Below are positions 16,697 through 50,933 of a DNA stretch of 64,000 nucleotides, piece by piece; position 1 is the first letter of the stretch, and each line of letters starts with the position of its first letter. This DNA is from Candidatus Omnitrophota bacterium (GTDB lineage: Bacteria > Omnitrophota > Gorgyraeia > Aquiviventales > Aquiviventaceae): assembly GCA_023247255.1 (NCBI GenBank), contig JAHFGV010000002.1:33835-97834 (forward strand). Direction: 5' to 3'. The notes beneath the pieces were generated by a model, which was not told the DNA's origin, searched no databases, and saw only the letters and a list, made by a program, of their open reading frames with translations. A program made the translations under genes and the position numbers.

Positions 16697-16750
16697 CAGG
16701 TGCCACTTGAAAGGTGCTAGGTGAGAGGTGAATGAAAAATAAGGTGAAAG
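16697..16750. repeat. purine-rich AGGTGA-type tandem repeats (lysA-dapF spacer)
   Basis: gaaaggtgctaggtgagaggtgaatgaaaaataaggtgaaag. Confidence 0.5.
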
Positions 16751-17721
16751 CCGCAATCCGCAATCCGCAATCCCCGATTCAAGGCGTTTCGTACACTAAA
16801 TTATCGGGCACAGGCAATGATTTTGTGCTGGTGGATACGCTCCATACGCAAACGGGCCGAGCGCATGTGAGCTGGCCGAGGATTGCCCAGCGTCTATGCA
16901 ATCGCAGCCAGGGGATCGGAGCGGATGGCCTGTTGGTATTGGGACGCTCGCGTGTCGCGGATGTTCGGATGAGAATTTTTAATCCGGACGGCTCAGAACC
17001 TGACATGTGCGGAAATGGGCTGCGGTGCCTGGCTTGGTACGCTACGCGATCGGGACAGGCTCGGGAGGGAGGAACTCTGACCATCCAAACCAAGGCCGGA
17101 ATCAAACAGGCCACCTTTGATAGTCCTAATCATGTTCGGGTTGATTTGGGAGTGCCTCGGTTTATTCGGCACTTCCACCGATTCGTCGTGGAAGGGCGGA
17201 GGGTTTTTCATATGGACGTTGTCAACTCCGGGGTTTTCCATGTCGTGTGTTGGGTATCGGATGTATCTCGGATCGATGTCCGGAAGCTCGGACGTTATCT
17301 GCGAAACCATCCCCGGTTTCGACCGCAAGGAGCCAATGTCGATTTCGTGGAATGGGTTTCTATGACTCAGCCCGCACGCCCGTTCGGAAATGAGCGGCCT
17401 TATCGAATCCGATTGAAGATGAGGACGTATGAACGCGGGGTGGAAGCCGAGACGCGTGCGTGTGGCACGGGGGCCGTGGCATCTGCGGCTGCTGCCATCC
17501 ATCATGCGTTGAGCCGTGAAACCCAAAGAACCTCTTCGGATATGCATCGTCCATTCGCTGTCGAGGTTTCTGTTCCGGGGGGAGTGCTTCGGGTCAATCT
17601 TGAGGCTAAAAGCCACTGCCTGCGGCAGAAGCAGAAATGGAATCTCGGCCATGCGTGGCTTGAAGGCAAGATCACACGACTCGACAGGGGAGTTTTTACG
17701 TTTGCCAACGGGAGAGAATAA
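16732..17721 (+). CDS. dapF: diaminopimelate epimerase
   Basis: KLSGTGNDFVLVD and catalytic Cys motifs CGNGLRC. Confidence 0.85.
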   Translation: MKNKVKAAIRNPQSPIQGVSYTKLSGTGNDFVLVDTLHTQTGRAHVSWPRIAQRLCNRSQGIGADGLLVLGRSRVADVRMRIFNPDGSEPDMCGNGLRCLAWYATRSGQAREGGTLTIQTKAGIKQATFDSPNHVRVDLGVPRFIRHFHRFVVEGRRVFHMDVVNSGVFHVVCWVSDVSRIDVRKLGRYLRNHPRFRPQGANVDFVEWVSMTQPARPFGNERPYRIRLKMRTYERGVEAETRACGTGAVASAAAAIHHALSRETQRTSSDMHRPFAVEVSVPGGVLRVNLEAKSHCLRQKQKWNLGHAWLEGKITRLDRGVFTFANGRE

Positions 17722-31335: not shown

Positions 31336-31710
31336 ATGGCTTCTGAAATGGTTTCTCACAGATCCCTTCTTCTCTCAGAACGTGGAGCTATCCTCGGATT
31401 AGTGACCGTCATGGCGCTTGCTTGTGCCATTGCGTCCTACACGGTTTTGATGATGGCTGGAAGCGATGTCCGGCAGGGTGGATTCTACGAAGGGCGCACG
31501 GAATCCCGCTATGCTGCGGAAGCAGGTCTGATATGGGCCATGCAGCAGTTGTGGGTGGATCCGTATTGGCAGTCGGCCGCCGGCACTACCGACGTCACAG
31601 TCGATGTCAACGGCAGGCCGGTGAACGTAGACATTATCATGCCCAGTTGTGGGGTGGTAGCGCCGACTCCATGTCCTCCCCGCAGTCTCCAAGCCAAGGT
31701 GGTGTACTAA
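31336..31710 (+). CDS. type IV pilus assembly protein PilX-like (PilX_N domain)
   Basis: SERGAILGLVTVMALACAIASYTVLMMA...AAEAGL matches the PilX N-terminal family. ORF-track start 31276 lies inside the terminator hairpin and is rejected. Confidence 0.7.
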   Translation: MASEMVSHRSLLLSERGAILGLVTVMALACAIASYTVLMMAGSDVRQGGFYEGRTESRYAAEAGLIWAMQQLWVDPYWQSAAGTTDVTVDVNGRPVNVDIIMPSCGVVAPTPCPPRSLQAKVVY

Positions 31711-31712
31711 TA

Positions 31713-31766
31713 CAATACAAACGAATTATCTAACGCGACAGTGCCAGAGGATAATTCGTTTGTATA
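31713..31766. repeat. 54-bp hairpin element atacaaacgaattatctaacgcgac.gtgccagaggataattcgtttgtat
   Basis: 16-bp stem atacaaacgaattatc/gataattcgtttgtat. Second copy at 49147-49199; related hairpin at 1131-1190. Confidence 0.6.
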
Positions 31767-31773
31767 CTAAAAG

Positions 31774-32328
31774 ATGCATTCTGCGAGCGTTTATTCTAAG
31801 ACAGTTATGCGCTCAAGGCTCAAGGCTCAAGGCTCAAGGCTATTTCCTACAGCCTACAGCCTACAGCCTACAGCCAATAGGGATTTTAAAGCATACCCTT
31901 GTGAATCTCGATGGATTTCATTCGTTTCTCAATATGGCTATACGTTTATGGAGGTTTTAACCACTGTCGTCATTCTCTCGGTTTTAATGATGATGGGCCT
32001 GCCTCAGTATCGCAAGGTGATCGAGCGCGGCTACTGGGACAGCGCCCGCGACGTTCTTTTAGCGATTTACGCAGGTGAGCAAACTTATGTGACGGTGAAT
32101 GGCACGTACAAAGGCGGCTTGGGAACGGCAAGCAGCATGACTGACTGGAGGGCAATCTATGTGGACAAACCGGCCGCTGCAGGGGAGCCTGTGGAATACA
32201 GTGTCACCGCGGCGGGACCTCCACCGACATTCACCGCAACGGCCAAGCGTATCGGTGGATCGTTTGACAGCAAGACAATAACGATCGATCAAGACAAGGC
32301 ATGGGGCGGAACATGGGCCAGGCCATGA
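31774..32328 (+). CDS. type IV pilin-like protein (minor pilin)
   Basis: Prepilin cleavage motif G|YTFMEVL with Glu at +5 and a hydrophobic helix. N-terminal extent uncertain; in-frame ATGs at 31774 and 31807 lie upstream of heptamer arrays. Confidence 0.6.
   Translation: MHSASVYSKTVMRSRLKAQGSRLFPTAYSLQPTANRDFKAYPCESRWISFVSQYGYTFMEVLTTVVILSVLMMMGLPQYRKVIERGYWDSARDVLLAIYAGEQTYVTVNGTYKGGLGTASSMTDWRAIYVDKPAAAGEPVEYSVTAAGPPPTFTATAKRIGGSFDSKTITIDQDKAWGGTWARP
31814..31876. repeat. two adjacent heptanucleotide arrays, (caaggct)x4 and (acagcct)x4
   Basis: 31814-31841 and 31849-31876. The core pentamers aggct/agcct are reverse complements, so the arrays can pair as an imperfect hairpin. Confidence 0.75.
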
Positions 32329-32873
32329 GGGGGTACCCGTGGTGTCTATCGTCGATTTTCGATTTTCGATTGTCGATTGAAAGCCATAGCGTTATCGATC
32401 GACGATCCACAATCCACAATCGACAATTCCATAGAGGTATCCGTGGTTTCACCATGATCGAGGTTCTCATCGCCTCAGTCATTGCTTCCATAGTCATCGG
32501 GGGAACGATGACAGCCTTTGTGACGGCAAGCCGGATGACGCGTCAGCAAAGCGGACCGGCCAATTCCGATGCCGCTTTGTATGTCCAGCAGCTTTTGGAG
32601 GCGATTCGCAATCACGTGGCTGCCGACTCGACATGGTTCAGCACAAGGGTCGGGCCGGTTCCCGCTACGTGGGCGGCTTGGCGAAACGATGATCCCCCAT
32701 TGTCGGCGTCCTGTCCCTCGGCATCTATCGTTTGCCGGACAGATGTGAACAATGGGCGGAAATATTTTATCACCTATGTCGACGACACCTGTGATGATGA
32801 CGGCGATACCAGTGATTGTTACTACGCCGTGACCGTGAGGGTCTGTTGGGATGAGCCGGCCTCGTCATGCTAA
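32301..32873 (+). CDS. type IV pilin-like protein (minor pilin, PilV/FimT-like)
   Basis: G|FTMIEVLIASV class III signal motif (Gly -1, Phe +1, Glu +5). No canonical start near the motif; the ORF reads through palindromic element 32345-32430. Confidence 0.6.
   Translation: MGRNMGQAMRGYPWCLSSIFDFRLSIESHSVIDRRSTIHNRQFHRGIRGFTMIEVLIASVIASIVIGGTMTAFVTASRMTRQQSGPANSDAALYVQQLLEAIRNHVAADSTWFSTRVGPVPATWAAWRNDDPPLSASCPSASIVCRTDVNNGRKYFITYVDDTCDDDGDTSDCYYAVTVRVCWDEPASSC
32345..32430. repeat. palindromic TCGATTGTCGATT-family element inside the pilin leader ORF
   Basis: cgattttcgattttcgattgtcgattgaaagccatagcg...cgacgatccacaatccacaatcgacaattcc. Confidence 0.7.
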
Positions 32874-33606
32874 ACAAGCGTATCCTTTTCGATTGTCGAT
32901 TGTCGATTTTCGATTGAAAGCCATAGCATTGCCAATCGACGATCCACAATCGACGATCGACGATTCCATTGTAGGTATGACTCTGATTGAGGTTATGGTC
33001 TCCCTGACGCTGGCGATGATCGTTCTGCTTGCGGTAACCAGCATCGATGTGACGCGGGTGCGGATTCACGAAGAGCTTCGTGATCGCTCAGGAATTGCAA
33101 CGCCGGAGCATGGGGAGGCTTCCTTGGCTGCTCTCTCTATAGAAAAAGACATCGAGCAGGCCGATCGGATCAATATCATTGCGGATGGCATTCAAGTGCG
33201 GATTCCCGATATGACGATCGCAGGATGTACGGGGACTGTTCCTGATGCCAGTTGCTTTGATGCTGCGGCCAACTACCGCTGGGACCAATACCGGCTTGAC
33301 GCTGACCAGCTGCTTTATTACCGCGGCACCCAAGTGGCCTGCCCCACTCCCACAGTGCTGGCTGAACAGATTGCGGATTTATCGTTTCAGTACGTGAATG
33401 AAGCCCCCGCTCCTCCTGGAGGCGATCCGGCAAACCAAGACAACAACCTGCTTGCCTACACGGTGAAATGGGATAACGCAGATGGGCTAAGCCATGAATT
33501 TCAGGGGGTGGTCAGTCTCAGAGCCTCTGCCTACACGGATGTTTCGACAGGGCTTCAGGCTCCCAATGGAACAGACATCAGTCCACCGCCTACGGTATGT
33601 TCGTAG
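32851..33606 (+). CDS. type IV pilin-like protein (minor pilin, PilW-like size)
   Basis: G|MTLIEVMVSLTLAMIVLL motif. The ORF reads through palindromic element 32886-32967. Confidence 0.6.
   Translation: MSRPRHAKQAYPFRLSIVDFRLKAIALPIDDPQSTIDDSIVGMTLIEVMVSLTLAMIVLLAVTSIDVTRVRIHEELRDRSGIATPEHGEASLAALSIEKDIEQADRINIIADGIQVRIPDMTIAGCTGTVPDASCFDAAANYRWDQYRLDADQLLYYRGTQVACPTPTVLAEQIADLSFQYVNEAPAPPGGDPANQDNNLLAYTVKWDNADGLSHEFQGVVSLRASAYTDVSTGLQAPNGTDISPPPTVCS
32886..32967. repeat. palindromic TCGATTGTCGATT-family element
   Basis: cgattgtcgattgtcgattttcgattgaaagccatagc...caatcgacgatccacaatcgacgatcgacgattcc. Confidence 0.7.
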
Positions 33607-34590: not shown

Positions 34591-36198
34591 ATGTTCAATA
34601 CAGGTGTAAGCTTTCCCCGTCGGCGAGCAACCCGCACTGGTTTGCGAGTCACAAGCGACGAGCGACGAGCAACGATACGTGGGGTTTTTGTAACCATTCT
34701 ATATTTCTGTGGTGTGTTCCTCAGCCTTGCGCCTGCGACGGGGGCGGAAGACGTCACGGTGACGACCTACTACCCCTCTCCGCGCGGAGTCTACGATGAG
34801 CTGCGCACAACCGGCGATGTGAGAATTGGGACGACTTCTGCTCCTGCGGCACGGTTGCACGTGGTCCAGACAAACGCACAAAACGCCTTTCGGGTCGATG
34901 ATGCGAATCCAGATACGACCCCATTCGTCATCGATCAGAATGGCAATGTCGGGATCAAGACGGCAAGCCCTCTGGCTGATCTCCATGTACGAGATGACGC
35001 CGATATAGTAAATCTTCGTGTCACATCGGACAATGAGCGAGCCGGAATTTCTTTATTGTCAGACAATACCGGTGAAGTATTAATCTATACCGAAGACGGA
35101 TCAGATGATTTGCGCTTTCAGGTTGGTGGTACAGATCGTATGACTATTGAAAGTGCCGCTGCTGAGACAAGCATTACGGGTGAGCTAGGGATAGGGACGG
35201 CGAATCCAGAGAGTCCCTTACACATTGTCACTCCAGCTGGGTCCGGTATAAATGAAGTACGTCTTGAAGAGACAGGTGGATCTACCCTGAGTCTGAGCGC
35301 TGGAGGTGGAGTGACCAGGATTGCCTCTAGCGATAATCTACAGATAGAAGCTCCAGGAGGAACCACTCGTATGATCGTGTTGGGCACAGGCAATGTTGGT
35401 ATAGGCGCAGGGAACCCATTGTCCCGTCTCAGCGTAGGAGCTGATGGGTTCGCGGCAACGGCTATTTATGGAGAAAGTGGAGGAGCAGGATCGGGTGTGG
35501 CTGGAAAGGGGGGTGGAAGGGGAGTGGAAGGATGGGCGAGCCTAGGAGCGGGAGCTGTTGCGGGCGTAGCTGGTACTACCATCGATCCAGCGACAATTCC
35601 TGGGGGAGAAATTCCGAATGGTGCGGGTGTATTTGGTTATGGACATACCTATGGAATCCGGGCCGTAGCGACGGACGCCGGGGGCACAGGGGTTTATGGA
35701 AAAGGGCCGGCTTGGGCAGGGGATTTTATAGGCGATGTGCGTGTATCCGATGACCTCTTTGTTGGTAATGATGTAGATGTTCAGGGGGATATTTCGGTAA
35801 CGGGGAACATCACAGGCGATGTTTCAGAACATGTGGATTGTTCAGGGTGTGAAGCGACCGATGTGGTGGTGATCGATCCTGACCACGACCAGCGCCTGCG
35901 CCCATCCAGCAAGGCCTATGACTCGACGGTGGCCGGCGTGATTTCAGAGAAACCGTCTCTAAAGATCGGCGGCAGCCAATCCGAGATCGCCAAGCCCTTG
36001 GCGCTTGCCGGGCTGGTTCGTGTGAAAGCGACGACGGAAAACGGGCCGATTCATCGGGGGGATCTACTCGTGACTTCATCAAAGCCTGGGCATGCCATGC
36101 GGGCCGATCCTGATGCGATCAAACCAGGGATGCTGCTGGGCAAGGCGCTGGAGCCTCTTTCCGAAGGCGATGGGGCGATAGTGATCTTGGTGGAATGA
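34591..36198 (+). CDS. secreted fibre-like repeat protein, paralog 1 (tail-fibre-like NGNVGIGT repeats, Gly-rich core, conserved C-terminal module)
   Basis: Strong RBS gaggtgagg. Signal-anchor VFVTILYFCGVFLSLAPATGA. Repeats of the type L.VV.....AFRVDD..PDTTPFVIDQNGNVGI. C-terminal 115 aa are ~85% identical to paralog 2. Confidence 0.75.
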   Translation: MFNTGVSFPRRRATRTGLRVTSDERRATIRGVFVTILYFCGVFLSLAPATGAEDVTVTTYYPSPRGVYDELRTTGDVRIGTTSAPAARLHVVQTNAQNAFRVDDANPDTTPFVIDQNGNVGIKTASPLADLHVRDDADIVNLRVTSDNERAGISLLSDNTGEVLIYTEDGSDDLRFQVGGTDRMTIESAAAETSITGELGIGTANPESPLHIVTPAGSGINEVRLEETGGSTLSLSAGGGVTRIASSDNLQIEAPGGTTRMIVLGTGNVGIGAGNPLSRLSVGADGFAATAIYGESGGAGSGVAGKGGGRGVEGWASLGAGAVAGVAGTTIDPATIPGGEIPNGAGVFGYGHTYGIRAVATDAGGTGVYGKGPAWAGDFIGDVRVSDDLFVGNDVDVQGDISVTGNITGDVSEHVDCSGCEATDVVVIDPDHDQRLRPSSKAYDSTVAGVISEKPSLKIGGSQSEIAKPLALAGLVRVKATTENGPIHRGDLLVTSSKPGHAMRADPDAIKPGMLLGKALEPLSEGDGAIVILVE

Positions 36199-40016: not shown

Positions 40017-41753
40017 ATGAAGCTGGCGTTGGCGAAAATAGCGGCGGGACTGGTCATACGCACCTCTGAGGTGGAGTTGCTTGCGCGGCAGGCAACGCGG
40101 ATCGTCAGCCGTATGCGCGTTCCCATTGAGGCAGATAACCAGCAGAGTTTGGTCCGCGCCATTCAGCAGGCGGTCAGCGTTGCTAGCAACCTGAACACCA
40201 ACCGCTTCGCTGTTTCCATCTTGACCCAGGATATAGTCTTTCGGTTTTTCACGATTCCGGCGATTCCGAAGAATGACTGGGATTCGGCGGTGCAGTTTGA
40301 GGCCCGCAAATACATTCCCTTCAAGATTGATAAATTGGTTTGGGACGCCGTGGTGGTTCCTTCTCGCATGCCGCAACGGCTCGATGTAATTTTCAGCGCC
40401 ATCCCGCGAGAAATCTTTGACGCAATCCAGGTCGCTTTGAAGGAGGCCGGGGTAGTACCGACGGTCATTGAGCCGCGGACGGCGAGTCTGGCCCGATTGG
40501 TGGGACACTCAACCGTACAGGCAACGGCCGGCTCGAAAGCGGCCGGGGTTGCGGCAAACACGGATACGTTTGCGTGTCTGGTCGATATCGACCGGGATAC
40601 GGCACACTTGGCGATCGTGAAGAATCGCTTGCCTTACTTGGCACGGGATATTCATCTGGTGCCCAGCAAGGAGGCGCGTTTGGATAATCTATATCTCTAT
40701 GCGGGGGTTGCCGATCCACCCGTTCAGCCGGTAGTCAATGAGCCAGCGTCAGGCCCTGCGATTGCGACAGGGGAAGGATCGACGGGTGTTCCTTTAAAGC
40801 CTCCGATCGCCCTGGAGGTGCCTCAATCCGTGGATCCCAAGATTCAGAAGCTGCTGAGCGAGTTGCGGGTTTCGATTGATTTCTTCACTCGGGAGCATCC
40901 TTCAGCGACTATTGAAAAGGTGTGGCTCTTTGGGGAGGATTCGGTAATCGGGCAGTGGCAACAGGCGTTGTCTGAACAGCTTCAAGGGACCGTTGACGTT
41001 GGCCGTAGCCTCCTCAATCAACGGTTTGAAGGGGGACTGCCTGTGTCTTTTGCCTCCGCGGCAGGGCTTTTGGAAGACAAAGAAGGACTGTCGATCAATT
41101 TTCTGAAACGCAGCATCGGCAAAAGCTCAGGCAACAACTTAAAAGAGATTCTCGCAGATCGGTTTCAGATCGACTCCAGCCGATTAATCGCCATGCTGGA
41201 CATGCGGCAGTTGGTCGTATGTGCGGCCGTTGCGGTGGCCCTGTTGGTCGGTTTATGGACTTTAGGATATCGACGGGTGAAAGAGGCCAAACAGCGCCTT
41301 CAGGTGGCTATTCAGGAAAGACAGGATGTCGGCTGGGACCTTAAGGGGAAGACCGAAACGGAAATAAAGCCGATTCAGGAGAATGCGAAAGCCCAACTCG
41401 CTTTGCTCAGTCAGGTGATCAATGGGCGGTCCCAATCGGCATTGGTGTTGGATCAACTGGCGCGATCTTTGCCGGATGGCGTGTGGCTGACCAGCCTGAC
41501 GTTTGAAGATCAATCCATAAAATCCGGAAAGGGGCAGTTTACGCTGATCGTCCAGGGTGCCTGTTTTCTGGGTTCCCCTGGCCAGGAGGTCAATGCGATT
41601 CAGGCATTCGAGGATCGCATGAAGCATAGCCCGGTCATTTCTTATATGCGGAACATTCGTGTGGATGCGATTAATGCTCAGGTAAGCCAGAACTATACCT
41701 ACCGGACATTTCAGTTGCAGTATCAATCGGATCGGATGGATCGGAGGCTGTAG
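40017..41753 (+). CDS. type IV pilus assembly PilM-PilN fusion protein
   Basis: N-terminal actin-like PilM domain (~350 aa), then a TM helix LVVCAAVAVALLVGLW and PilN-type coiled-coil periplasmic domain; 578 aa single ORF. Confidence 0.8.
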   Translation: MKLALAKIAAGLVIRTSEVELLARQATRIVSRMRVPIEADNQQSLVRAIQQAVSVASNLNTNRFAVSILTQDIVFRFFTIPAIPKNDWDSAVQFEARKYIPFKIDKLVWDAVVVPSRMPQRLDVIFSAIPREIFDAIQVALKEAGVVPTVIEPRTASLARLVGHSTVQATAGSKAAGVAANTDTFACLVDIDRDTAHLAIVKNRLPYLARDIHLVPSKEARLDNLYLYAGVADPPVQPVVNEPASGPAIATGEGSTGVPLKPPIALEVPQSVDPKIQKLLSELRVSIDFFTREHPSATIEKVWLFGEDSVIGQWQQALSEQLQGTVDVGRSLLNQRFEGGLPVSFASAAGLLEDKEGLSINFLKRSIGKSSGNNLKEILADRFQIDSSRLIAMLDMRQLVVCAAVAVALLVGLWTLGYRRVKEAKQRLQVAIQERQDVGWDLKGKTETEIKPIQENAKAQLALLSQVINGRSQSALVLDQLARSLPDGVWLTSLTFEDQSIKSGKGQFTLIVQGACFLGSPGQEVNAIQAFEDRMKHSPVISYMRNIRVDAINAQVSQNYTYRTFQLQYQSDRMDRRL

Positions 41754-41759
41754 ACTCTG

Positions 41760-42305
41760 ATGAAAGGTTTCAACCCGACAGCGATCGTTGGAGGAATTGG
41801 AGTTGTCTGCATAGGCATCTTGGGGTATCATACCCTCTATGCGCGCCAATTGCAGCAGGTGCGAACCATTGAAGCACAAGTTGCTCAAGAGCACCGGGAT
41901 CAGCAGGTTCAACAAGAGGTAGCCAAGCTGCTGGAGCAACTGGAGCGCCAGCGAAAACGACTGCCCCCCGAGCCGGATCCTTCATGGCTAGTGCGGGAAG
42001 TGGTTTCCCATGGTCAACAGGCAGGTCTTCAGTTGACGAGCATCACCCAGCAACCTTCCGAACAACAAGCCTCAGCCCTTCGTCTTGCCGTAAATCTCCA
42101 GGTCCAGGCTTCCTACCATCAATTGGGAAGGTTTCTCGACTCTCTGGAGCGCTCCGAGTCTTTTATCAAAGTGGACAAAATCGAATTATCCAATCCCAAC
42201 GATAATGGCGTTGCCGTGGCGCGACTGATGTTGAGCACTATTTACCTTCCTCCGGTTACGCAAGCGTCTGCGCCTACTATAAGGAAAAAGGAAGATCTAG
42301 GGTGA
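41760..42305 (+). CDS. pilO: type IV pilus assembly protein PilO
   Basis: N-terminal TM helix, coiled coil, PilO-like C-terminal domain; position after pilMN. Confidence 0.75.
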   Translation: MKGFNPTAIVGGIGVVCIGILGYHTLYARQLQQVRTIEAQVAQEHRDQQVQQEVAKLLEQLERQRKRLPPEPDPSWLVREVVSHGQQAGLQLTSITQQPSEQQASALRLAVNLQVQASYHQLGRFLDSLERSESFIKVDKIELSNPNDNGVAVARLMLSTIYLPPVTQASAPTIRKKEDLG

Positions 42306-42306
42306 A

Positions 42307-42990
42307 ATGGACACTGTGAAACGCGCCAATTTCGAAAAACGTCTGGTATTAATCCTGGTGATTCTGTTTTCCTTCACATTGCTTGGCGCTCTGAAGAATG
42401 CCGGCATATTGAAGATCCCAGGATTTGTTAAGGCCGCGACGGCTGCGAGTCCCAAGCAAACAACAGCCCCGCTGGCTGCGGCGGATTCTTCTCCATCGGC
42501 ACAGGCAGAGCCGGTCGCGCCGCTTGAAGTTCAAACGTCCGTTACAGAGCCAAAGCGCTCGAGTGCCTCGCAGGCTGTGGCAGGCTATACGGCTCAAGAC
42601 CTGCGCGATCCCCTGAAAGATTTGCTTCCGCAACCTTCTCGAGGTCCTACTCAAACGGTTTCGACCAGCTCTTATGGAGGATCGAACGCTTCATCGACTT
42701 TGAATCCTTCCGTTTCATCTACAAGACCGCTTGCCATTTCTGAGCTGAGCCTGCAAGGCCTGATATGGGGAGGCCCTCAACCTCAGGCGATCATTAACCA
42801 TCAAACCTATAAAGTGGGTGATCGACTACAGAGCGGGCGGATCGTTTCCATAACCCGTCAGGGGGTCGTCATTGAACAAGCCGGGGATAATACTCTGTTG
42901 TCCCCCAGCTCTTCGGATCAGTCTTTTTCTTCGATGTCGGTCACAAACAGCTTGCAGATACCGACGCATCAGCAGGGGGTTCGCCAATGA
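42307..42990 (+). CDS. pilP: type IV pilus assembly protein PilP-like
   Basis: TM/lipoprotein-like N-terminus, Ser/Pro-rich linker, C-terminal beta domain (VGDRLQSGRIVSITRQGVVIEQAG); position before the secretin gene. Confidence 0.65.
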   Translation: MDTVKRANFEKRLVLILVILFSFTLLGALKNAGILKIPGFVKAATAASPKQTTAPLAAADSSPSAQAEPVAPLEVQTSVTEPKRSSASQAVAGYTAQDLRDPLKDLLPQPSRGPTQTVSTSSYGGSNASSTLNPSVSSTRPLAISELSLQGLIWGGPQPQAIINHQTYKVGDRLQSGRIVSITRQGVVIEQAGDNTLLSPSSSDQSFSSMSVTNSLQIPTHQQGVRQ

Positions 42991-43044
42991 TGCTAATGAC
43001 GTTTTCATTTACAAAGCCTGTCTCTGTGAGTTTTGGGCTTAACG

Positions 43045-43118
43045 AATTGTCGATTGCCGATGGATAGGATCTGGACGGTTTTCAATCCACAATCCAAAAT
43101 CGGTAATCGAAGATTCAA
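43045..43118. repeat. palindromic TCGATTGTCGATT-family element (upstream / 5' region of pilQ)
   Basis: cgaattgtcgattgccgatgg...ttcaatccacaatccaaaatcggtaatcgaag. Confidence 0.6.
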
Positions 43119-43194
43119 TGGACCGCTAGCCTTTAGCTGCCAGTCTCATTTATTCTTGAAACAAGCTCTAGCAGGCTGCGGGAAAACCCTTCGT

Positions 43195-43322
43195 AGTTCT
43201 GGGTTGAGGGTTCAGGGTTCGGGGCAAATACACCATGGCTCATCGGTGAGACGGGTTCTGGCCCCCAGCCCAGAGCCCAGGACCCTGAACCGACTGGCGT
43301 TTTTCAGCATCCTGCTAGTGCG
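43195..43322. repeat. ~115-bp repeat shared with 49035-49148
   Basis: ctgggttgagggttcagggt...acacca..gctcatcggtgagacgggt.ctggcccccagcccaga.cc...gaaccgactggcgtttttcagca.cctgct; ~85% identity. Confidence 0.6.
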
Positions 43323-45006
43323 GGGGATCGGCTTCTGTGTCTGGCTTTTATGTATCGCAGGTCTGGGGGCTCAGGAGAGCGTTCATTCTTTGGAGGTCTC
43401 AGAAGCAGCATCGCCATCCGAAGAAGACTCTCTTTCTTTGAATGAACCGGACACGTTAGACCTGGCTTCGTCCTCAGAGGGGGCTTTCTCCTATGAACCC
43501 CTACGGCTTTCGATGGAATTTCAAGACGCTAACCTAAAGGACGTTTTGAAGATTTTTTCTCAGCAAACAGGCATCAACGTGATTACGAGCGCTCAGGTGG
43601 GTGATCAACCGGTCACTATCTACTTGGAAGATGTGGAAGCTATGGATGCGTTGGATCAAATCCTTCTCGCCGCTGGACTGACTTATGAACGGCCTGCTGG
43701 CAGCGAGATCTATATTGTGAAGCCCATCGAGCTACAGGAAACGGGTGTGACGACGATGACGCGGGTCTATCGACTACGATACGCGCGTGTCTCGAGTACT
43801 CCATTGGCTCAGGCGGCCGGCAAGCTCATAGCCGGCGGTAGCCTTGGGGGAGGGGGAAGTGGAGGGGGAGGTGGTGGAGGGGGTAGCGGAAGCTCCGCAG
43901 GTGCGGGCTCTTCCGGAGGAACCGGTGGAGGCGGTAGCACGGGTGGTGGCGGTGGTGGTGGAGCGACAGGTGGTGGAGGAGGTAGTGGCGTCGATACTGT
44001 ATTGACCGGACTTTTGACTTCTCAGGGAAGTATCGTAGTCGATGGCCGCACGAATAGTTTGATCGTGACCGATGTGCCCGAAAACTTTCCCCGTTTGGAG
44101 GCGGCGTTAGCGGCCCTGGATATTCCAACGCAGCAGATTATGATTCACGTGGAGATTATCGAGACTACCTTAGGAAAAGATAAAACCCTGGGTTTTCAAT
44201 GGGGCACAGGCGCCGATGGGGATATGCTCACCCTTACCCCGGGCTCTCGGACCACTCGATTTCCTTTTGGATTGCTTCGGGACGGGATTTCCCCCACAGG
44301 CCCGACGCCTTTTTCAACCAGCACCCTCTCTGCGCAAAGAGCGGCCGGACTCCTTCAGGCTTTGGAAAGCGATTCCGATACCAAGATCCTTGCCAGGCCG
44401 AAGATCTTGACATTGGACAACGAAAGTGCGGTGATTCGCTTGACGACGGATCAAGCGATTGGATTTGCTTCGAGCAGCCAGCAGTCCACAGGCACGACGA
44501 CTTCAGAGCCAGAGCGCCAAACCACCGGAGTCCTATTGACAGTCACCCCGCAAGTGAACGAGAAGAAATACATCACGATGGTGCTGGAGCCCGCGATTAC
44601 CAAAACCGTCGCTTCCCAGATTACCGCACCTTCGGGCCAATCTACCCCGATTGATCCTAAAACGCGCAGTTCCCGGACGGTGGTTCGGGTGCGCGGTGGA
44701 GACACCATTGTGGTCGGCGGCCTCATTGATCAAAGCGATCAAGAGAGTCACAAGCGGGTGCCTGTGGTGTCCGGTATTCCATTCTTAGGCGAAGTGTTTA
44801 AGCATAAAGAAGTCAACAGCTCCATAAGCGAGCTTTTAGTGTTTGTGACTCCCCAACTTCTTGAAGATGCTCAACAGGAGGATCAACACGGGATGTTGGC
44901 TTCCAAAGACCCAAAGGCTAGATTTCCCCAACAACAGGAATCCACACGCTCCAGACACACGTTGATGGAAGAGACGTTGAACGTGTTGGAGCGGCGTGAT
45001 CATTGA
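43318..45006 (+). CDS. pilQ: type IV pilus secretin PilQ
   Basis: In-frame GTG at 43318 gives signal peptide VRGIGFCVWLLCIAGLGAQES. Secretin N-domains, a ~50-aa Gly-rich linker, and the C-terminal secretin domain (VVSGIPFLGEVFKHK). The upstream in-frame ORF 43033-43317 is repeat sequence. Confidence 0.85.
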   Translation: MRGIGFCVWLLCIAGLGAQESVHSLEVSEAASPSEEDSLSLNEPDTLDLASSSEGAFSYEPLRLSMEFQDANLKDVLKIFSQQTGINVITSAQVGDQPVTIYLEDVEAMDALDQILLAAGLTYERPAGSEIYIVKPIELQETGVTTMTRVYRLRYARVSSTPLAQAAGKLIAGGSLGGGGSGGGGGGGGSGSSAGAGSSGGTGGGGSTGGGGGGGATGGGGGSGVDTVLTGLLTSQGSIVVDGRTNSLIVTDVPENFPRLEAALAALDIPTQQIMIHVEIIETTLGKDKTLGFQWGTGADGDMLTLTPGSRTTRFPFGLLRDGISPTGPTPFSTSTLSAQRAAGLLQALESDSDTKILARPKILTLDNESAVIRLTTDQAIGFASSSQQSTGTTTSEPERQTTGVLLTVTPQVNEKKYITMVLEPAITKTVASQITAPSGQSTPIDPKTRSSRTVVRVRGGDTIVVGGLIDQSDQESHKRVPVVSGIPFLGEVFKHKEVNSSISELLVFVTPQLLEDAQQEDQHGMLASKDPKARFPQQQESTRSRHTLMEETLNVLERRDH

Positions 45007-45047
45007 GAGAAGAACTGAAGGTCGTGTTGTGTTTCAAGAGAAGTAAT

Positions 45048-45192
45048 AAGGATTGTGTCATGCTTTATGTGTCATGAGTCATGGAACGACAGCAGACATG
45101 GGAAGTCTTTCATGACACATAAAACATGACTCATGAAACAAACGTGAGTACTGGGTCTTAGAATCATGACTCATGAAACATGACACAAACGT
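45048..45192. repeat. 'catgacac' inverted-repeat element copy upstream of pilB
   Basis: gtgtcatgctttatgtgtcatgagtcatgg ... tcatgactcatgaaacatgacaca. Confidence 0.6.
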
Positions 45193-45218
45193 CGTTGTTT
45201 GAAGCTGAGGAAATCAAC

Positions 45219-46946
45219 ATGTCCGTGCTGAAGACGACCCAAAAAATCGGCGATCTTTTGATCAAAGCCGGCGTGCTCTCGAAAGAACAACTGGACAAGG
45301 CTCTTGAGGTTCAGCGCGGAACGACCAAGCGGATCGGTGAAATCTTGGTGGAGTTGGGACTAGCGACAGAGCTTGAGATTGCTTCCGCTTTGAGCAAGCA
45401 GCTTGGAATTCCCTTTGCCTCCGGCGCATCCGGTTTGCTCAACCCGAAGGAAGACGAAGGACTGGAACAACTGGTGCCTGAGGAGTTTGCCCGGACTCAT
45501 TTGATCCTTCCACTATCCAAGACCCTTCATTCGCTTACGATCGCCTGCGTCAATCCATTGGATCTGATCGCCATAGATAACCTGAGCCGGATCTCTCGCT
45601 GCGAGATCAATCCCGTGGTCACTACCAAGGTAGACGTGGAACGGGCCATCGACAAGTTCTACGGCCATGATTCCATGCTCAGAGAAGCGGTCGGCCACTC
45701 GTATGAGCTGGCTCAAGAAGAAGGATTTACGACTGACGGCGATCAGTCTTTGGATCTGGGCCGTTTGAAGGAGGCGGCGGAAGAAGCCCCGGTCATTCGT
45801 CTGGTGGATCTGATTCTTCGCCAGGCGATCAAGGATAGAGCCAGCGATATCCATATCGAACCGTTCAAGGACCGTATCAGCTTGCGCTACCGGGTCGATG
45901 GCGCTTTGTGCGAGGTCACCTCGCCTGCGAAGTCTTTCAACGCGGCGATCGTTTCGCGTATCAAGATTCTCTGTAAGATGGATATCGCGGAAAAGCGATT
46001 GCCTCAAGATGGAGCCTTCATGATGACTATGGAGGGGCGATCCATCGATTTTCGCGTCAATAGCGTCCCGACGATTTATGGCGAGAAAGTCGTCATCCGG
46101 ATTCTCGACAAGTCGCCCGCTTTGTTGGATTTAAGTCGCCTGGGTTTTGACGAGCGTTCCCTTACCGTTTTTAGAGAGGCCATCCACGATCCCTACGGTC
46201 TTATCTTGATCACAGGACCAACCGGATCCGGAAAGTCCACGACGCTCTATGCGGTCCTCAACGAGATTAACGCTCCCTCCAAGAATATTCTCACCATCGA
46301 AGATCCTGTGGAGTACCGACTGTCCGGGGTCAATCAAATTCAGGCCAAGACGGATATCGGCCTAAGTTTTGCGGCAGGGTTGCGCGCGTTCATGCGCCAG
46401 GATCCGGATATCATCATGGTGGGAGAGACCCGGGACAAGGAGACCGCGGAGATTTGCATCCGGGCTTCATTAACCGGACATTTGGTGTTCACCACGTTGC
46501 ATACCAACGATGCCCCCAGCGCGGTTACTCGATTGGTGGATATCGGCATCGCGCCTTATCTGCTTTCCTCGACCCTTCGTCTGGTGGTGGCCCAACGGTT
46601 GCTGCGCAAGCTGTGCGACCATTGCAAGGAAGCGTATGAACCGATCGATCCTCTTCGAAAACAATTCGGGATCATGGAGGAGCTTTTGTACCGTCCTAAA
46701 GGTTGCGATCAGTGCGCGTCCTCCAGCGCCAACAAAGGCTACCGAGGGCGTATCGGCGTTTATGAAGTGATGCCCATCACACGGGAAATTCGTGATGGGA
46801 TCGCCAAAGGTGTCGCACCGCATACGCTCAAAGATCTTTCTGTAGCCTCAGGCATGAGCACCCTGTGGTCCGATGGCCTGCGCAAGGTGCGGCTTGGGAT
46901 CACAAGCCTTGAGGAATTGGAAGGCGTCGTCTTGTTGGAGGCTTAG
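45219..46946 (+). CDS. pilB: type IV pilus assembly ATPase PilB (GspE family)
   Basis: N-terminal T2SSE_N/MshEN-like domain, Walker A GPTGSGKST, tetracysteine CDHC...GCDQC motif. ATG 45219 has RBS gaggaaa. Upstream ATG 45180 lies inside the repeat. Confidence 0.9.
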   Translation: MSVLKTTQKIGDLLIKAGVLSKEQLDKALEVQRGTTKRIGEILVELGLATELEIASALSKQLGIPFASGASGLLNPKEDEGLEQLVPEEFARTHLILPLSKTLHSLTIACVNPLDLIAIDNLSRISRCEINPVVTTKVDVERAIDKFYGHDSMLREAVGHSYELAQEEGFTTDGDQSLDLGRLKEAAEEAPVIRLVDLILRQAIKDRASDIHIEPFKDRISLRYRVDGALCEVTSPAKSFNAAIVSRIKILCKMDIAEKRLPQDGAFMMTMEGRSIDFRVNSVPTIYGEKVVIRILDKSPALLDLSRLGFDERSLTVFREAIHDPYGLILITGPTGSGKSTTLYAVLNEINAPSKNILTIEDPVEYRLSGVNQIQAKTDIGLSFAAGLRAFMRQDPDIIMVGETRDKETAEICIRASLTGHLVFTTLHTNDAPSAVTRLVDIGIAPYLLSSTLRLVVAQRLLRKLCDHCKEAYEPIDPLRKQFGIMEELLYRPKGCDQCASSSANKGYRGRIGVYEVMPITREIRDGIAKGVAPHTLKDLSVASGMSTLWSDGLRKVRLGITSLEELEGVVLLEA

Positions 46947-46974
46947 CGTGTCATGTTCCAAGAGGTAGAGTAAC

Positions 46975-48207
46975 ATGCCGACTTTTGTCTACAGTGCAAG
47001 AGACCAACGCGGGGTCGTCCAAACCGGCCGTCTGGATGCCGTCAATGAAGATGACGTGATTGCCCAGCTCCAGCATCGAGGCCTTCTCATTACCTCTGTG
47101 GAGCGGAAGGACTCCCAGCAGGGCGTTAAGACCATCCATCGCTCCAGAAAACCCCGCCGCATGCACGCGGGGGTTAAGACCGAGGATCATGTCATATTTT
47201 GCCAGCAGCTTGCAACCATGGTTGAGGCCGGTGTTCCACTCTTGAAGGGTCTTCGGGTCGTATCCTCTCAGGTGGAAAGTCGCAAGATGCTTCTCGTTTT
47301 GGAAGAGGTTCGTCGGGATGTCGAGGCCGGACGCACCTTTCGGGAGGCTTTGGCCAAGCACCCCGCTGTTTTTTCCTCTCTCTGGCTGAATCTCGTTGAA
47401 ACCGGAGAGGCCAGCGGACATCTGGCTCAATCCCTTCAGCAGTTGTCTCGCCATTTTGAGGCTGCCCAGCATCTTCAGAATGAGGCAAAGACCGCCATGA
47501 CCTATCCGGCTTTTCTGATGGTGGCTGCCGTCGGGGTGCTTGCGTTTTTTGTATACTGGCTCATCCCCAAGTTCACCGCCATCTTCGCCTCTATGGATCT
47601 CGATCTGCCTCCCCTCACCCGTGCGGTCATTACTTTCAGTGAAGCTGGCCGTCGGTATTTCGTGTTCATCATCTTGGGAATCGCCGGGTTGGTCTATTTA
47701 ATCCGCCGTTATCTGCGCACAGAAGCAGGGCAATGGATGCGGGACCGCGCCATGCTGCGCCTGCCTTTGTTTAACACCCTTTTTTCCTACATTCACCTTG
47801 CCGAATTTTCCCGCGGTCTTTCCACGCTTTTAGAAAGCGGCGTTCCTCTTCTGTCTGCCTTGACGATTTTGGAGAATAGTGCTACAAACAAAGTTTATGG
47901 CGCAGCAGTCACTCGCGTGAAGCAAGCGGTTCAGGAAGGCCAGACCATGGCCGATCCCATGGCTCAAGAAGACATCTTCCCGCCTATGGCCGTTCAGATG
48001 GTGCAGGTCGGCGAAGAGGTGGGTGAGCTTTCCAAGATGGCGGATCGCATTGCCAAGTATTACGAAGGCCGGGTGGAGATTTTCATCGGCCGGATGACGC
48101 GGCTCTTTGAGCCTATCGCGATTGTGGTCATGGGCGCGATGGTCATGGTCATCGTCCTTTCGATCTTCATGCCCATCTTCAAGATGGCAGGCTCCTTTAA
48201 AGGATAA
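46975..48207 (+). CDS. pilC: type IV pilus platform protein PilC (GspF family)
   Basis: Two T2SSF repeats and three TM segments; 410 aa. Confidence 0.9.
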   Translation: MPTFVYSARDQRGVVQTGRLDAVNEDDVIAQLQHRGLLITSVERKDSQQGVKTIHRSRKPRRMHAGVKTEDHVIFCQQLATMVEAGVPLLKGLRVVSSQVESRKMLLVLEEVRRDVEAGRTFREALAKHPAVFSSLWLNLVETGEASGHLAQSLQQLSRHFEAAQHLQNEAKTAMTYPAFLMVAAVGVLAFFVYWLIPKFTAIFASMDLDLPPLTRAVITFSEAGRRYFVFIILGIAGLVYLIRRYLRTEAGQWMRDRAMLRLPLFNTLFSYIHLAEFSRGLSTLLESGVPLLSALTILENSATNKVYGAAVTRVKQAVQEGQTMADPMAQEDIFPPMAVQMVQVGEEVGELSKMADRIAKYYEGRVEIFIGRMTRLFEPIAIVVMGAMVMVIVLSIFMPIFKMAGSFKG

Positions 48208-48505: not shown

Positions 48506-48964
48506 ATGAAGAGAAAAAGCGGGTTTACGTTGCTTGAGTTGTTGATGGTCGTCATCATCATTGCAATCTTGGCTTCCATCGCTTTGCCTCAGTTCATGCG
48601 TGCGTCCGAGCGCGCCCGTGCCACCGAGGCGATTCAACTACTCGGCCAGATCCGCACGGCGGAAAATCGATACAAGTCCCAGAATGATCTAAACAACTAC
48701 TCCGATGTCGTGGGTGATCTGGACTTTGATCTGCCGACATCAACTCGGTTCTGGAATTGGACGGGTGCTGCAGTAGGTGTAGCTCCTGCATTCAATGTCA
48801 ATGAGACGAATGCAGCGGCTGGAACCCCAGCAACAGGCATGGCAGAAGCAGCTAGAAGTTCAGGGCAGTATATAGGAGAAATCGTTGGCATCCAATTTGG
48901 GACGGGGACCATTTGTGGTAACTTTACTCCCATGATGCCGCTAGTGGCTTGTGTGGAGGACTGA
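48506..48964 (+). CDS. type IV major pilin paralog 1
   Basis: RBS aggagg. Leader MKRKSG|FTLLELL. Conserved alpha1 helix ...ALPQFMRASERARATEA. C-terminal GIQFGTGTICGNFTP...AC disulfide loop. Confidence 0.85.
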   Translation: MKRKSGFTLLELLMVVIIIAILASIALPQFMRASERARATEAIQLLGQIRTAENRYKSQNDLNNYSDVVGDLDFDLPTSTRFWNWTGAAVGVAPAFNVNETNAAAGTPATGMAEAARSSGQYIGEIVGIQFGTGTICGNFTPMMPLVACVED

Positions 48965-49034
48965 TCCGTTTCAAGAGAATTGCGTAAGCACGCGATTCTG
49001 GCAAGCAAGAGAATCTTGCCATGGTGGTTGGACT

Positions 49035-49148
49035 TCTAGGCTCTGGGTTGAGGGTTCAGGGTAAATACACCACCGCTCATCGGTGAGACGGGTCCTGGCC
49101 CCCAGCCCAGAACCCCGAACCGACTGGCGTTTTTCAGCAGCCTGCTGA
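49035..49148. repeat. second copy of the ~115-bp pilQ-leader repeat
   Basis: See 43195-43322. Located between pilin paralogs 1 and 2 and followed directly by the hairpin element. Confidence 0.6.
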
Positions 49149-49199
49149 TACAAACGAATTATCTAACGCGACGATGCCAGAGGATAATTCGTTTGTATC
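49147..49199. repeat. second copy of the 54-bp hairpin element
   Basis: gatacaaacgaattatctaacgcgacgatgccagaggataattcgtttgtatc. Confidence 0.6.
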
Positions 49200-49346
49200 A
49201 GTGGGTATGAGTGGAAGGTTACGTAGACAAGGGCTTTGAGAAAGGTAGTCTGCTAGGGGGAGGTGAGCCTGTTATTGAATCTCGCAGAATCATTTGGTAC
49301 GATCTCTCAACGATAAATCAGTTTCATTCCTTCCGTGAGCTGCAAT

Positions 49347-49826
49347 ATGATTAAAATTAGGGTTAGAAGAAAGGGCGGCTTCACTCTCCTTGAAATGCTA
49401 ACAGTCGTTATCATCATCGCCATCCTTACCTCGATTGCCCTGCCGCAGTTCATGCGGGCTTCCGAGCGCGTCCGTGCAGCAGAGGCCATTCAAATATTGG
49501 GTCAGATTCGCGGCTCCCAGCATCGGCACAAGGCTATGAGTCTCGCCAACGACTATACCAACGACGTGACAGCATTAGATGTGGACTTACCTCAAGATAA
49601 GACAGGTGCTCCGATTACCAATATCTGGGATTGGACCCCTGCGATCCTGAATAGCAACATGTCCGTAAGCCATACTGCTCCGTTCTTCGCCACAGGCTAT
49701 GTAGCGGTTCCAAGAAATAGTGGTCAGTATAAGGGTGAGCTCTTAGGTATACAATTCGGGACAGGAACATTGTGTGGTGATTTCACCCCTTACGGAGGCA
49801 CAATCATCGCCTGTGGTGAGGATTAA
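49347..49826 (+). CDS. type IV major pilin paralog 2
   Basis: Leader MIKIRVRRKGG|FTLLEML. The same SERxRAAEA helix and CGDFTP C-terminal loop. GTG 49335 is an alternative start. Confidence 0.8.
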   Translation: MIKIRVRRKGGFTLLEMLTVVIIIAILTSIALPQFMRASERVRAAEAIQILGQIRGSQHRHKAMSLANDYTNDVTALDVDLPQDKTGAPITNIWDWTPAILNSNMSVSHTAPFFATGYVAVPRNSGQYKGELLGIQFGTGTLCGDFTPYGGTIIACGED

Positions 49827-49923
49827 ATCAGTGACCAGTGAGAAGCTCTGCGAGAATACACTCCACGCAATTCAAAAGAGGCGGATCACGGAAGGACTCA
49901 CCAGAAAGAGGAGGTGATTCAAG

Positions 49924-50412
49924 ATGAGGAGACTGGGTTTTACCTTGATTGAGCTTCTGACTGTCGTCATCATCTTGGGTGTTTTAGCCGCTGCCGCCCT
50001 GCCACAGTATATGAAAGCCGTAGAGGCATCCCGTGCCGGTGAGGCGCTGAGCATGCTTACGGCGTTGCGTCGTGCCGCCCTTCGTTACCAGCTCCAGCAT
50101 GATCAGGCACACTTCCCAATAGATTCAGAAGTCACTAACGGCATATTGGATGTTGAATGGTACATTGATACTACTACGAATGGCAAGTTTGATGCCGGTG
50201 AGACACTACTCATGCAGTATTGGACATTTAATCCGAGTACTGACTACGATGTGGATAATAGCGTTTCTCCCAGTATAGGACATATCCAAACGGTACGTAA
50301 AAGTGGTACGAACATAGGTAAAACCATTGGTGTTGAACTTAACAGTGGGGATACCTGTGGTGATTTTCCTGCAGCTTCGATTGTTGCACCCGGTGCTTGT
50401 GCCAATAACTAA
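49924..50412 (+). CDS. type IV major pilin paralog 3
   Basis: RBS gaggaggtga. Leader MRRLG|FTLIELL. YMKAVEASRAGEA helix. C-terminal GDTCGDFP...GACANN loop. Confidence 0.85.
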   Translation: MRRLGFTLIELLTVVIILGVLAAAALPQYMKAVEASRAGEALSMLTALRRAALRYQLQHDQAHFPIDSEVTNGILDVEWYIDTTTNGKFDAGETLLMQYWTFNPSTDYDVDNSVSPSIGHIQTVRKSGTNIGKTIGVELNSGDTCGDFPAASIVAPGACANN

Positions 50413-50424
50413 TCCTCCAGAGAG

Positions 50425-50898: not shown

Positions 50899-50933
50899 TA
50901 GAATAGGGTATGAGTTAGGTGGGGATTTATCCC

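Follow-up and report, generated by a model that had tools for sequence, protein, structure and literature searches.

Three consecutive minor-pilin genes, here named pilin1, pilin2 and pilin3, lie in a 64,000-nucleotide stretch of contig JAHFGV010000002.1 of a Candidatus Omnitrophota bacterium (the window), and in each of them hairpin-forming or heptamer repeats are found just upstream of the codons for a prepilin peptidase cleavage site. The reading favoured here, drawn from sequence comparison and held with about even confidence, is that the repeats are translated into unusually long leaders of 41-55 residues that prepilin peptidase would remove, and that the genes are not broken.

On this reading, the repeats would have spread through the genome, mostly in 5' untranslated spacers, and some copies would have settled in the only dispensable stretch of tightly packed gene junctions, which is the leader-coding segment that separates the start codon from Gly(-1). 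Only in-frame, stop-free insertions would persist. Translation would start at an ATG upstream of each insert (32325 in pilin2, 32851 in pilin3, and 31807 or 31774 in pilin1), in pilin2 by re-initiation at the ATGA overlap with the pilin1 stop codon, and the ribosome would read through the hairpin. The leaders, of 41 residues in pilin2, 42 in pilin3 and 44 or 55 in pilin1, would be cytoplasmic. Prepilin peptidase would then cut after Gly(-1), the repeat-encoded peptide would be discarded, and the mature minor pilins would be normal. This account builds on the anatomy of the junctions, the insertion relative to orthologues, the phase of the frames, the intactness of the genes and the recurrence of the arrangement in relatives; to these it adds the start codon used, the read-through of the hairpin and the peptidase cleavage as steps that we infer.

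Cleavage motifs and integrity of the three pilins

The prepilin peptidase sites proposed in the initial annotation are present in three consecutive open reading frames (ORFs). With the slash marking the cleavage position, pilin1 reads SQYG/YTFMEVL (Gly-1 at 31936-31938, Tyr+1 at 31939), pilin2 reads GIRG/FTMIEVL (Gly-1 at 32445-32447, Phe+1 at 32448) and pilin3 reads SIVG/MTLIEVM (Gly-1 at 32974-32976, Met+1, encoded by ATG, at 32977), each with Glu at +5. A hydrophobic helix follows each motif (maximum KD15 of helix 2.6). In profile searches, pilin2 scores 28.7 bits with Pfam N_methyl, above the cut-off of 21.2 bits, and pilin1 (18.6) and pilin3 (17.5) lie below it. With NCBIfam TIGR02532 (cut-off 16.3 bits), pilin1 (22.0) and pilin2 (24.8) are both above the threshold; the match of pilin1 to Pfam ComP_DUS is below threshold. 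Pilin3 is placed by homology in a family whose 187 representatives have clear motifs and mostly short canonical leaders. The features of a class III signal peptide found here are the Gly-1/Glu+5/helix arrangement, the hidden Markov model score and the nearby filament machinery. The short leader of 6-26 residues from a canonical start is absent, and the candidate leaders span 16-55 residues.

All three pilin ORFs are intact and 30-45% identical to their orthologues from mature residue +1 through the C-terminus, pilin1 being 33-44% identical over its full length. The approximately 480 codons of the three genes contain no frameshift or stop, and their Cys and Trp positions are conserved.

Hairpin and heptamer repeats in the leader regions

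The palindromic element that had been placed directly upstream of the pilin2 and pilin3 cleavage sites is confirmed at both positions, and each copy forms a hairpin of ~85 nt (E1 and E2; Table 1). The predicted folding energy is -46.6 kcal/mol for E1 (z = -2.4) and -50.0 kcal/mol for E2 (z = -4.7). The aligned copies (32352-32432 and 32889-32969) are 88% identical, and their in-frame translations are ..CLSSIFDFRLSIESHSVIDRRSTIHNRQFH.. for E1 and ..FRLSIVDFRLKAIALPIDDPQSTIDDS.. for E2. As also stated at the outset, pilin1 shares the start problem, with GCTCAAG and CCTACAG arrays at this position; they pair partially (GGCU/AGCC) and fold with z = -3.1. The heptamer units sit downstream of ATG 31807, ATG 32325 and ATG 32851.

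These elements belong to a population of repeats in the window. The 13-mer core TCGATTGTCGATT, with at most one mismatch allowed, has 32 matches against 0.2 expected, and its sites, at least 10 in number, include spacers between tRNA genes. Approximately 30 arrays of period 7 are present, mostly intergenic and built from at least 12 different units, and many of them are complementary pairs that form hairpins. The arrays could be growing locally by slippage. Intergenic hairpin copies end in the consensus GGAATT...AATTCC. Across the whole window, an Rfam scan recovered four tRNAs only, and the elements themselves match no known RNA family.

An imperfect direct repeat of 15 nt brackets E1, GGTAcCCGTGGTgTC (32332-32346) on one side and GGTAtCCGTGGTtTC (32436-32450) on the other, with 13 of the 15 nucleotides matching; E2 has no such flanking repeat. 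The direct repeat suggests that the ancestral pilin2 start read ATG AGG GGT ATC CGT GGT / TTC, that is, MRGIRG/F. The insertion reconstructed in this way would be 104 nt long, and one extra G in the upstream G-run would restore the phase of ATG 32325.

Candidate start codons

No ATG, GTG or TTG lies in frame within 16 codons upstream of any of the three cleavage sites. The reported lack of a close start codon therefore holds on the upstream side, but it overlooked the ATGs at or just after the sites, at +1 in pilin3 (32977), +3 in pilin2 (32454) and +4 in pilin1 (31948). Farther upstream, the in-frame canonical starts of pilin2 are ATG 32325 (41-residue leader), ATG 32313, ATG 32301 and TTG 32370 (26 residues). 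Those of pilin3 are ATG 32851 (42 residues) and TTG 32893, 32914 and 32929 (28, 21 and 16 residues), and those of pilin1 are ATG 31807 (44 residues) and ATG 31774 (55 residues). The leaders of 45-50 residues first estimated from distant ATGs are too long for pilin2 and pilin3, whose nearest ATGs give 41-42 residues. A TTG in the loop was considered as a conserved start and rejected, because the reading frame through the loop differs between E1 and E2. Translational bypassing between the direct-repeat copies, of the T4 gene 60 type, was also set aside, as the frame is open and a stop at a take-off site is lacking.

The case for a long leader is strongest in pilin2. Its ATG 32325 overlaps the pilin1 stop codon as ATGA (32325-32328), and this start of ancestral type is kept, in phase, 41 codons before Phe+1. 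From ATG 32325 the in-phase frame is the only stop-free one, and the database call of 182 residues begins at the same codon. The hairpin begins approximately 6 nt after this ATG, and for this reason it might make translation of pilin2 depend on coupling to pilin1, which is speculative. The case is weaker in pilin3, because the ATG that overlaps the upstream stop lies in another phase, and the in-phase ATG arises from pilin2 codons. ATG 32851 lies within pilin2, 23 nt before its end, and is the only candidate start with a well-spaced Shine-Dalgarno sequence (GAGGG, 9 nt upstream). Pilin1 is the weakest case, with neither coupling nor a Shine-Dalgarno sequence.

The putative leaders are hydrophilic (grand average of hydropathy -0.2 to -0.85), net positive (+1 to +11) and free of membrane-helix-like segments, and in this they match what class III leaders require (PMC4471445). 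A comparison of charge and hydropathy between used and unused frames gave no discrimination, as the used frames are always hydrophilic and positive and the others are often similar.

Much shorter leaders would result if translation began at near-cognate codons, which are ATC 32439 (-3) in pilin2, ATT 32968 (-3) in pilin3 and ATT 31915 (-8) in pilin1. The leaders would then have 3, 3 and 8 residues (M-R-G/F, M-V-G/M and M-SFVSQYG/Y). This is the least credible of the explanations considered. An Ile codon does stand at exactly -3 in both pilin2 and pilin3, where their families mostly have E, R, Q, T or S, but the repeat-bearing relatives have no Ile at that position. ATC 32439 is aligned with the pilin3 ATG in the E1/E2 alignment and may therefore be a mutated ATG; moreover, one family member, P0153, which is possibly a fragment, has a 3-residue MRG/ leader. 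On the other hand, AUU and AUC are very weak initiators in the bacteria studied, the sole Shine-Dalgarno-like sequence (AGAGGT or GTAGGT) abuts the codons with zero spacing, and the five other pilins of the window all start with ATG. Among the options first offered, namely non-canonical initiation, unusually long leaders and disrupted starts, long leaders are the best supported, and initiation at ATC or ATT at -3 is not needed.

Orthologous junctions and recurrence in relatives

The syntenic locus L002 has no repeats, and its leaders have 5-7 residues (MKRARDG/F, M(M)SERG/T and MTHRERG/V). Its junctions are compact, with ..TGATG.. leading into MKRARDG/FTLSE, AGGAG-N6-ATG into MSERG/TTLLE and ..ATGA.. 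into MTHRERG/VTLFE. Because these junctions are compact and repeat-free, the ancestral state is taken to be a short canonical leader started where the genes of the operon meet, to which insertions were added in the window.

Repeats in the leader region recur in several relatives. L008, which was chosen through its 'leaderless' pilin3 call, has heptamer repeats at all three pilin junctions, and its pilin2 combines a different heptamer hairpin with an ATGA-coupled ATG in phase and a 38-residue leader ending in HRG/F. In L015, whose pilin2 was not selected for the feature, an unrelated element of approximately 190 nt follows an ATGA-coupled ATG and gives a 64-residue leader; the in-phase frame has 0 stops and the other two have 5 and 2. 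The pilin3 genes of L007, L014 and L016 have repeat-filled leaders that run from an ATG overlapping the upstream stop. Codon +1 is GTC in pilin3 of L014 and L016, so these two genes cannot start at +1. The sole TTCTAGC unit of L014 in which TAG would fall in frame reads TTCCAGC instead. In total, three genomes (the window, L008 and L015) have a pilin2 whose junction ATG is in phase, and all repeat-bearing genes examined encode Gly(-1) by GGN.

Database calls are mixed. Among the 21 database proteins of the pilin2 family, six are called with long leaders (19-44 residues) and two are truncated, both on contigs shorter than 700 nt (binomial P 0.02 if the phase were random). Two members, P0154 and P0155, have mature parts that are 93% identical and leaders that are unrelated (38 and 44 residues). 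The pilin1 family has eight truncated against six long calls, and one of the truncated ones, called from +4, is an 81%-identical relative of the window gene. In the pilin3 family, approximately 14 of 150 representatives are called with leaders of at least 25 residues, and approximately 30 are called without a recognisable leader motif, some of these being fragments. A word-indexed homologue search with pilin2 matched only pilin2 itself, and a metagenome scan with pilin3 found a single distant high-GC cluster with canonical leaders (L006).

Some side observations concern the same families. The 10-mer CCGTGGTGTC (GTGGTGTC in L015) adjoins leader-region repeats in four genomes (window 32337-32346, L008 ~2750, L013 ~1105 and L015 ~3625), with a P-W-C reading in three. 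The pilin3 orthologue of L014 (1295-3802) has 835 residues with PT-HINT, Hint_2 and Intein_splicing Pfam matches, and looks like a minor pilin with an intein-type insert. The N-terminus of P0186, of the pilin1 family, reads MTHRGFT...(35 aa)...KLVGG/FTLMEVM, so that the cleavage motif occurs twice around an insert, as if copied by target-site duplication.

Leaderless starts and gene decay as alternatives

A different view takes the elements as 5'-untranslated hairpins and places the starts at the ATGs at +1, +3 and +4; the products would be leaderless, peptidase-independent pilins in which Gly(-1) is a relic. This is an unlikely alternative, although the most probable of those considered. An ATG does lie within +1 to +4 in all three genes; however, these families often have Met at +1 and +4, and the ATGs at these positions are therefore not special. 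Gene callers begin both pilin1 and its 81%-identical relative at +4, but such starts would cost conserved residues of the assembly helix, +1 to +3 in pilin1 and +1 to +2 in pilin2. The usual layout in this genome is an array, 2-16 nt and then a start codon, and E2 ends 7 nt before ATG 32977, yet no Shine-Dalgarno sequence is suitably spaced from any of these ATGs. In pilin2, a GTG after AGAGGT opens a 4-codon upstream ORF (uORF) whose TGA overlaps ATG 32454. Against leaderless products also stand the GTC or TTT codons at +1, with no nearby start, in L014, L016 and L015 pilin2, the retention of Gly(-1) in all repeat-bearing genes examined, the in-phase junction ATG in pilin2 of three genomes, and the need of a leader for efficient processing (PMC4471445).

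The 'leaderless' calls in databases were considered as support for starts at Met+1, and four of them were examined at the DNA level. Two are gene-caller errors, as L010 and L011 have canonical GTG or ATG leaders. Of the other two, L008 has repeats with in-frame ATGs, and L009 has a frameshifted leader. In L009 (1890-1925), a leader-like uORF of 10 codons, MTLRARARLG*, is offset by one base from the pilin3 frame, and its TGA overlaps ATG(+1) as ATGA. It could represent a leader with a frameshift, an erroneous assembly of a G-run, or a site of termination-reinitiation from which a leaderless pilin is made; the overlap of its stop with ATG(+1) suggests that a leaderless M+1 form may be viable.

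Several observations weigh against the long leaders favoured here. Leaders of 41-55 residues are approximately twice the documented range of 6-26 residues (15-30 for type IVb). That the element is read in frame without stops, as first reported, is correct but weak as coding evidence, because each heptamer element leaves two of the three frames open. There is also an ascertainment effect, as several in-phase cases among relatives were picked on account of their long calls. Long database calls can also be artefacts, since L012 and L013 carry an in-frame canonical GTG after the hairpin that gives leaders of 7 and 10 residues. The array-then-start layout, the commonest one here (ArgB, ArgH, PilMN and ORF 18662), fits E2 with ATG(+1) following its end. 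In pilin3, the ATG that overlaps the upstream stop (32867) is out of phase and its frame closes at TGA 32915, while ATG 32851, together with its GAGGG, results from the codons for the conserved VRVCWDE of pilin2. In pilin1, ATGs 31807 and 31774 have no Shine-Dalgarno sequence and are not coupled to the preceding gene, and gene callers place the start at +4.

It could also be argued that the insertions destroyed the starts and that the genes are recent pseudogenes or barely expressed. The canonical short leaders of the orthologues are missing here, no good ribosome-binding site precedes any candidate start, and the five other, normal pilins are encoded in the window. This explanation is nevertheless highly improbable, given the intact codons, the full-length alignments and the conserved Cys and Trp. 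E1 and E2 already differ by 12%, and the insertions are therefore not brand new. Moreover, repeats in the leader region occur with intact genes in L008 (all three pilins), L015, L014, L007 and L016. The suggestion of starts disrupted by repeat insertion is thus borne out in that repeats were inserted relative to the short canonical leaders of L002, but the genes are not simply mutated pseudogenes. The initial annotation had held that short canonical leaders in orthologues, mutated here, would mark the genes as pseudogenes. The L002 leaders are short, whereas the second half does not hold, as the ORFs are intact, the pilin2 ATG is in phase and the arrangement recurs.

Comparison with known repeats and leaders

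Rickettsia palindromic elements (RPE): The RPE reportedly goes back to Ogata et al. 2000. The RPE, the YPAL/RU-2 and the 107-bp Correia element are palindromic repeats, similar to miniature inverted-repeat transposable elements (MITEs), that are fused in frame to protein genes, and in one case the YPAL element of Yersinia contributes part of a signal peptide (PMC2229807). Like these, the elements of the window are short (~100-nt) dispersed palindromes with long stem-loops that occur both between genes and within ORFs, in frame and stop-free. Many dispersed copies, a stable stem-loop and a contiguous ORF in frame with the host gene are all found here. In contrast to the unique sequence of a MITE, they consist of tandem heptamers, and terminal inverted repeats with target-site duplication are convincing for E1 only. 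The RPE inserts into surface loops of mature proteins, whereas the insert here lies in a class III leader that would be cleaved off, and its translation is putative.

Cyanobacterial short tandemly repeated repetitive (STRR) sequences: These resemble the heptamer arrays in having many different 7-nt units in 3-6 copies, genome-wide and mostly intergenic. However, the host here appears to be Omnitrophota-like and not a cyanobacterium, as judged from the nearest genome matches, which are Candidatus Omnitrophota metagenome-assembled genomes (MAGs), and from the annotation of P0207. Many of the arrays also form complementary, hairpin-forming pairs, and some lie in 5' coding sequence.

Repetitive extragenic palindromic (REP) sequences and bacterial interspersed mosaic elements (BIMEs): The likeness is that of stable hairpins at polycistronic operon junctions, which could affect mRNA stability or translational coupling. 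REPs lie in untranslated spacers, whereas the ancestral junctions here are spacerless and the hairpin is 3' of a retained start codon.

Type IVb and Flp prepilins: Class III leaders are documented at 6-26 residues and type IVb leaders at 15-30 residues (PMC4471445). As in long-leader prepilins, a hydrophilic leader ending in Gly is followed by a hydrophobic helix with Glu5, and its length varies. Unlike them, the putative leaders of 41-55 residues (64 in L015) exceed the documented range and are repeat-encoded. They are not conserved between close relatives, and the mature parts are type IVa-like minor pilins.

Contingency loci: The CTCTT repeats in the leader-coding region of the Neisseria opa genes and the heptanucleotide repeats in the 5' coding region of neuO in E. 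coli K1 act as contingency switches. As in these, the length of the repeat unit is not divisible by three, and the repeats lie between a start codon and the functional part of the gene. The heptamer arrays might accordingly be slipped-strand switches in which gain or loss of a unit toggles the frame of the minor pilins; this is very improbable, and it is compatible with translated long leaders for the ON state. The leader inserts turn over fast between relatives whose mature parts are 93% identical, and an extra G apparently restores the phase of pilin2. In contrast to the long, isolate-polymorphic repeats of opa and neuO, each array has only about four units. Three assemblies of the strain are identical here, although these are near-clonal consensus sequences. 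The arrays also lie beside tRNA and housekeeping genes and are therefore not specific to surface structures. It is quite improbable, though slightly less so, that the leader is a used regulatory module. In that case the repeats would enforce strict translational coupling or on/off switching by heptamer units, and leaders of 41-64 residues, the longest known, would turn over rapidly.

Gene neighbourhood and other repeats of the window

The three pilins belong to a minor-pilin operon of the tip-complex type, which consists of a PilX-like gene, pilin1, pilin2, pilin3 and a large secreted protein (Table 1). The first gene resembles the N-terminus of PilX/GspK by eye only, and it has no Pfam or NCBIfam match. 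Its start is uncertain between GTG 31276 and ATG 31336, the latter corresponding to the gene call in L001, and an orthologue occupies the same cluster position in L002, L008 and L015. The closest genome with the same order, TPR-ExbB-ExbD-DUF2582/CutA-PilX-like-three pilins, is a Candidatus Omnitrophota MAG whose ExbB is 59% identical. The locus is not an assembly artefact, because its sequence recurs in the independent European Nucleotide Archive assembly L001 (1 mismatch in 8679 nt) and in Logan contig P0003.

Genes for type IV filament machinery lie downstream, and several of their intergenic junctions contain heptamer arrays. They are followed by five more pilin genes with ordinary leaders (MKRKSG/F, MIKIRVRRKGG/F, MRRLG/F, MGRRS/F and MPKGLAG/F). 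Given these five ATG-started pilins and the PilM-PilN, PilO, secretin, ATPase and platform genes, the organism makes normal prepilins and has the machinery for them.

Table 1. Positions of the pilin cluster, its repeats and the control genes within the window.
Feature	Position	Strand	Basis or location	Remarks
DapF (control)	16732..17721	+		CCGCAAT x3.3 array (16751-16773)
PilX-like first gene	31336..31710	+	ORF list	small membrane-anchored protein, motif ..SERGAILGLV..
Perfect 16-bp inverted repeat	31715..31765	.	between first gene and pilin1	ATACAAACGAATTATC / GATAATTCGTTTGTAT
pilin1	31774..32328	+	ORF, TIGR02532	FimT/GspH/ComP-like minor pilin
Two heptamer arrays	31811..31875	+	putative pilin1 leader	GCTCAAG x4.4 (31811-31841), CCTACAG x4.3 (31846-31875)
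pilin2	32325..32873 (ORF 32301-32873)	+	ORF, Pfam N_methyl, TIGR02532	PilV/GspI-like
E1	32343..32432	+	pilin2 leader region	hairpin: TCGATTK heptamers, loop, complementary heptamers
pilin3	32851..33606	+	ORF, family homology	PilW/GspJ-like, mature part 209 aa
E2	32886..32969	+	pilin3 leader region	second hairpin copy, frame differs from E1
Large secreted protein	34591..36198	+	ORF list; AGCGACG x3 array	YPSPRGVY motif
Type IV filament machinery	40017..48207	+	profile matches	PilM-PilN fusion, PilO, secretin, PilB/GspE ATPase (T2SSE), PilC/GspF platform protein (T2SSF)
Five more pilin genes	48506..51374	+	internal control	ordinary ATG-started leaders of 5-11 residues

The inverted repeat between the first gene and pilin1 folds at -25 kcal/mol (z = -5.2); it has no T-run and received no terminator call. 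A scan for intrinsic terminators around the cluster found none, and the idea that the hairpins are terminators separating transcripts was dropped for lack of such calls. A promoter-like GTGCCA-16 nt-TATACT (31741-31776) ends at 31768; transcription from it would begin near ATG 31774, and the mRNA of pilin1 could then be leaderless. Promoter-like matches around the cluster are at chance level only.

Arrays inside N-terminal coding sequence are also found outside the pilins. In DapF, the array at 16751-16773 follows the only canonical starts (ATG 16732 and GTG 16744) and precedes the DAP_epimerase domain, which begins at residue 22; this housekeeping enzyme thus seems to have a translated N-terminal heptamer array. 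Two paralogous secreted proteins with the YPSPRGVY motif, encoded at 34591-36198 and 36631-38367, have no Pfam match, and both carry an AGCGACG x3 array in the signal-peptide n-region (34654-34675 and 36760-36781, within 34591-34700 and 36690-36800). They are a parallel case of an array in a cleavable N-terminal region. Their upstream regions are near-identical and are overlapped by opposite-strand ORFs, for example 36257-36676.

Other arrays touch start regions or tRNA genes. A Shine-Dalgarno-like AGGTGAN unit is repeated 3-7 times at 16690-16730 and 18605-18656, just before ATG 16732 of DapF and GTG 18662. In the secretin gene (43033-43300), an in-frame GTG, the probable start, is bracketed by a GGTTCAG array and its complement. 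The start codon would then lie in the hairpin loop, and the 3' arm would be read as part of the signal-peptide n-region. A composite repeat of approximately 100 nt, GAGCCGAGCCTTCGGTCAATCAAGAGAGCCGAGGGAATT followed by a heptamer hairpin, occurs beside tRNA genes (4630-4745, 5140-5245, 5530-5600 and 52200-52310).

Significance

It is already established that palindromic MITE-like repeats can be fused in frame to protein genes. What is new is the location of repeats in the class III leader of minor pilins, their recurrence across diverged Omnitrophota-like operons, and the leader lengths. The practical relevance lies in gene-start annotation. Database calls for the genes of the window are inconsistent (126 residues from +4 for pilin1, 182 or 186 for pilin2 and 251 for pilin3), and pilin finders built on short leaders will overlook such genes in uncultured genomes of the PVC group or place their starts wrongly. 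Should the long leaders prove real, the length that class III signal peptides tolerate would be extended approximately two-fold, and substrates of prepilin peptidase could bear arbitrary repeat-encoded N-terminal extensions. The insert itself would be essentially neutral, and the cleavable leader would act as a safe harbour for selfish repeats. The operon would then offer a clean natural example of such repeats surviving in genes by way of a segment that is proteolytically discarded.

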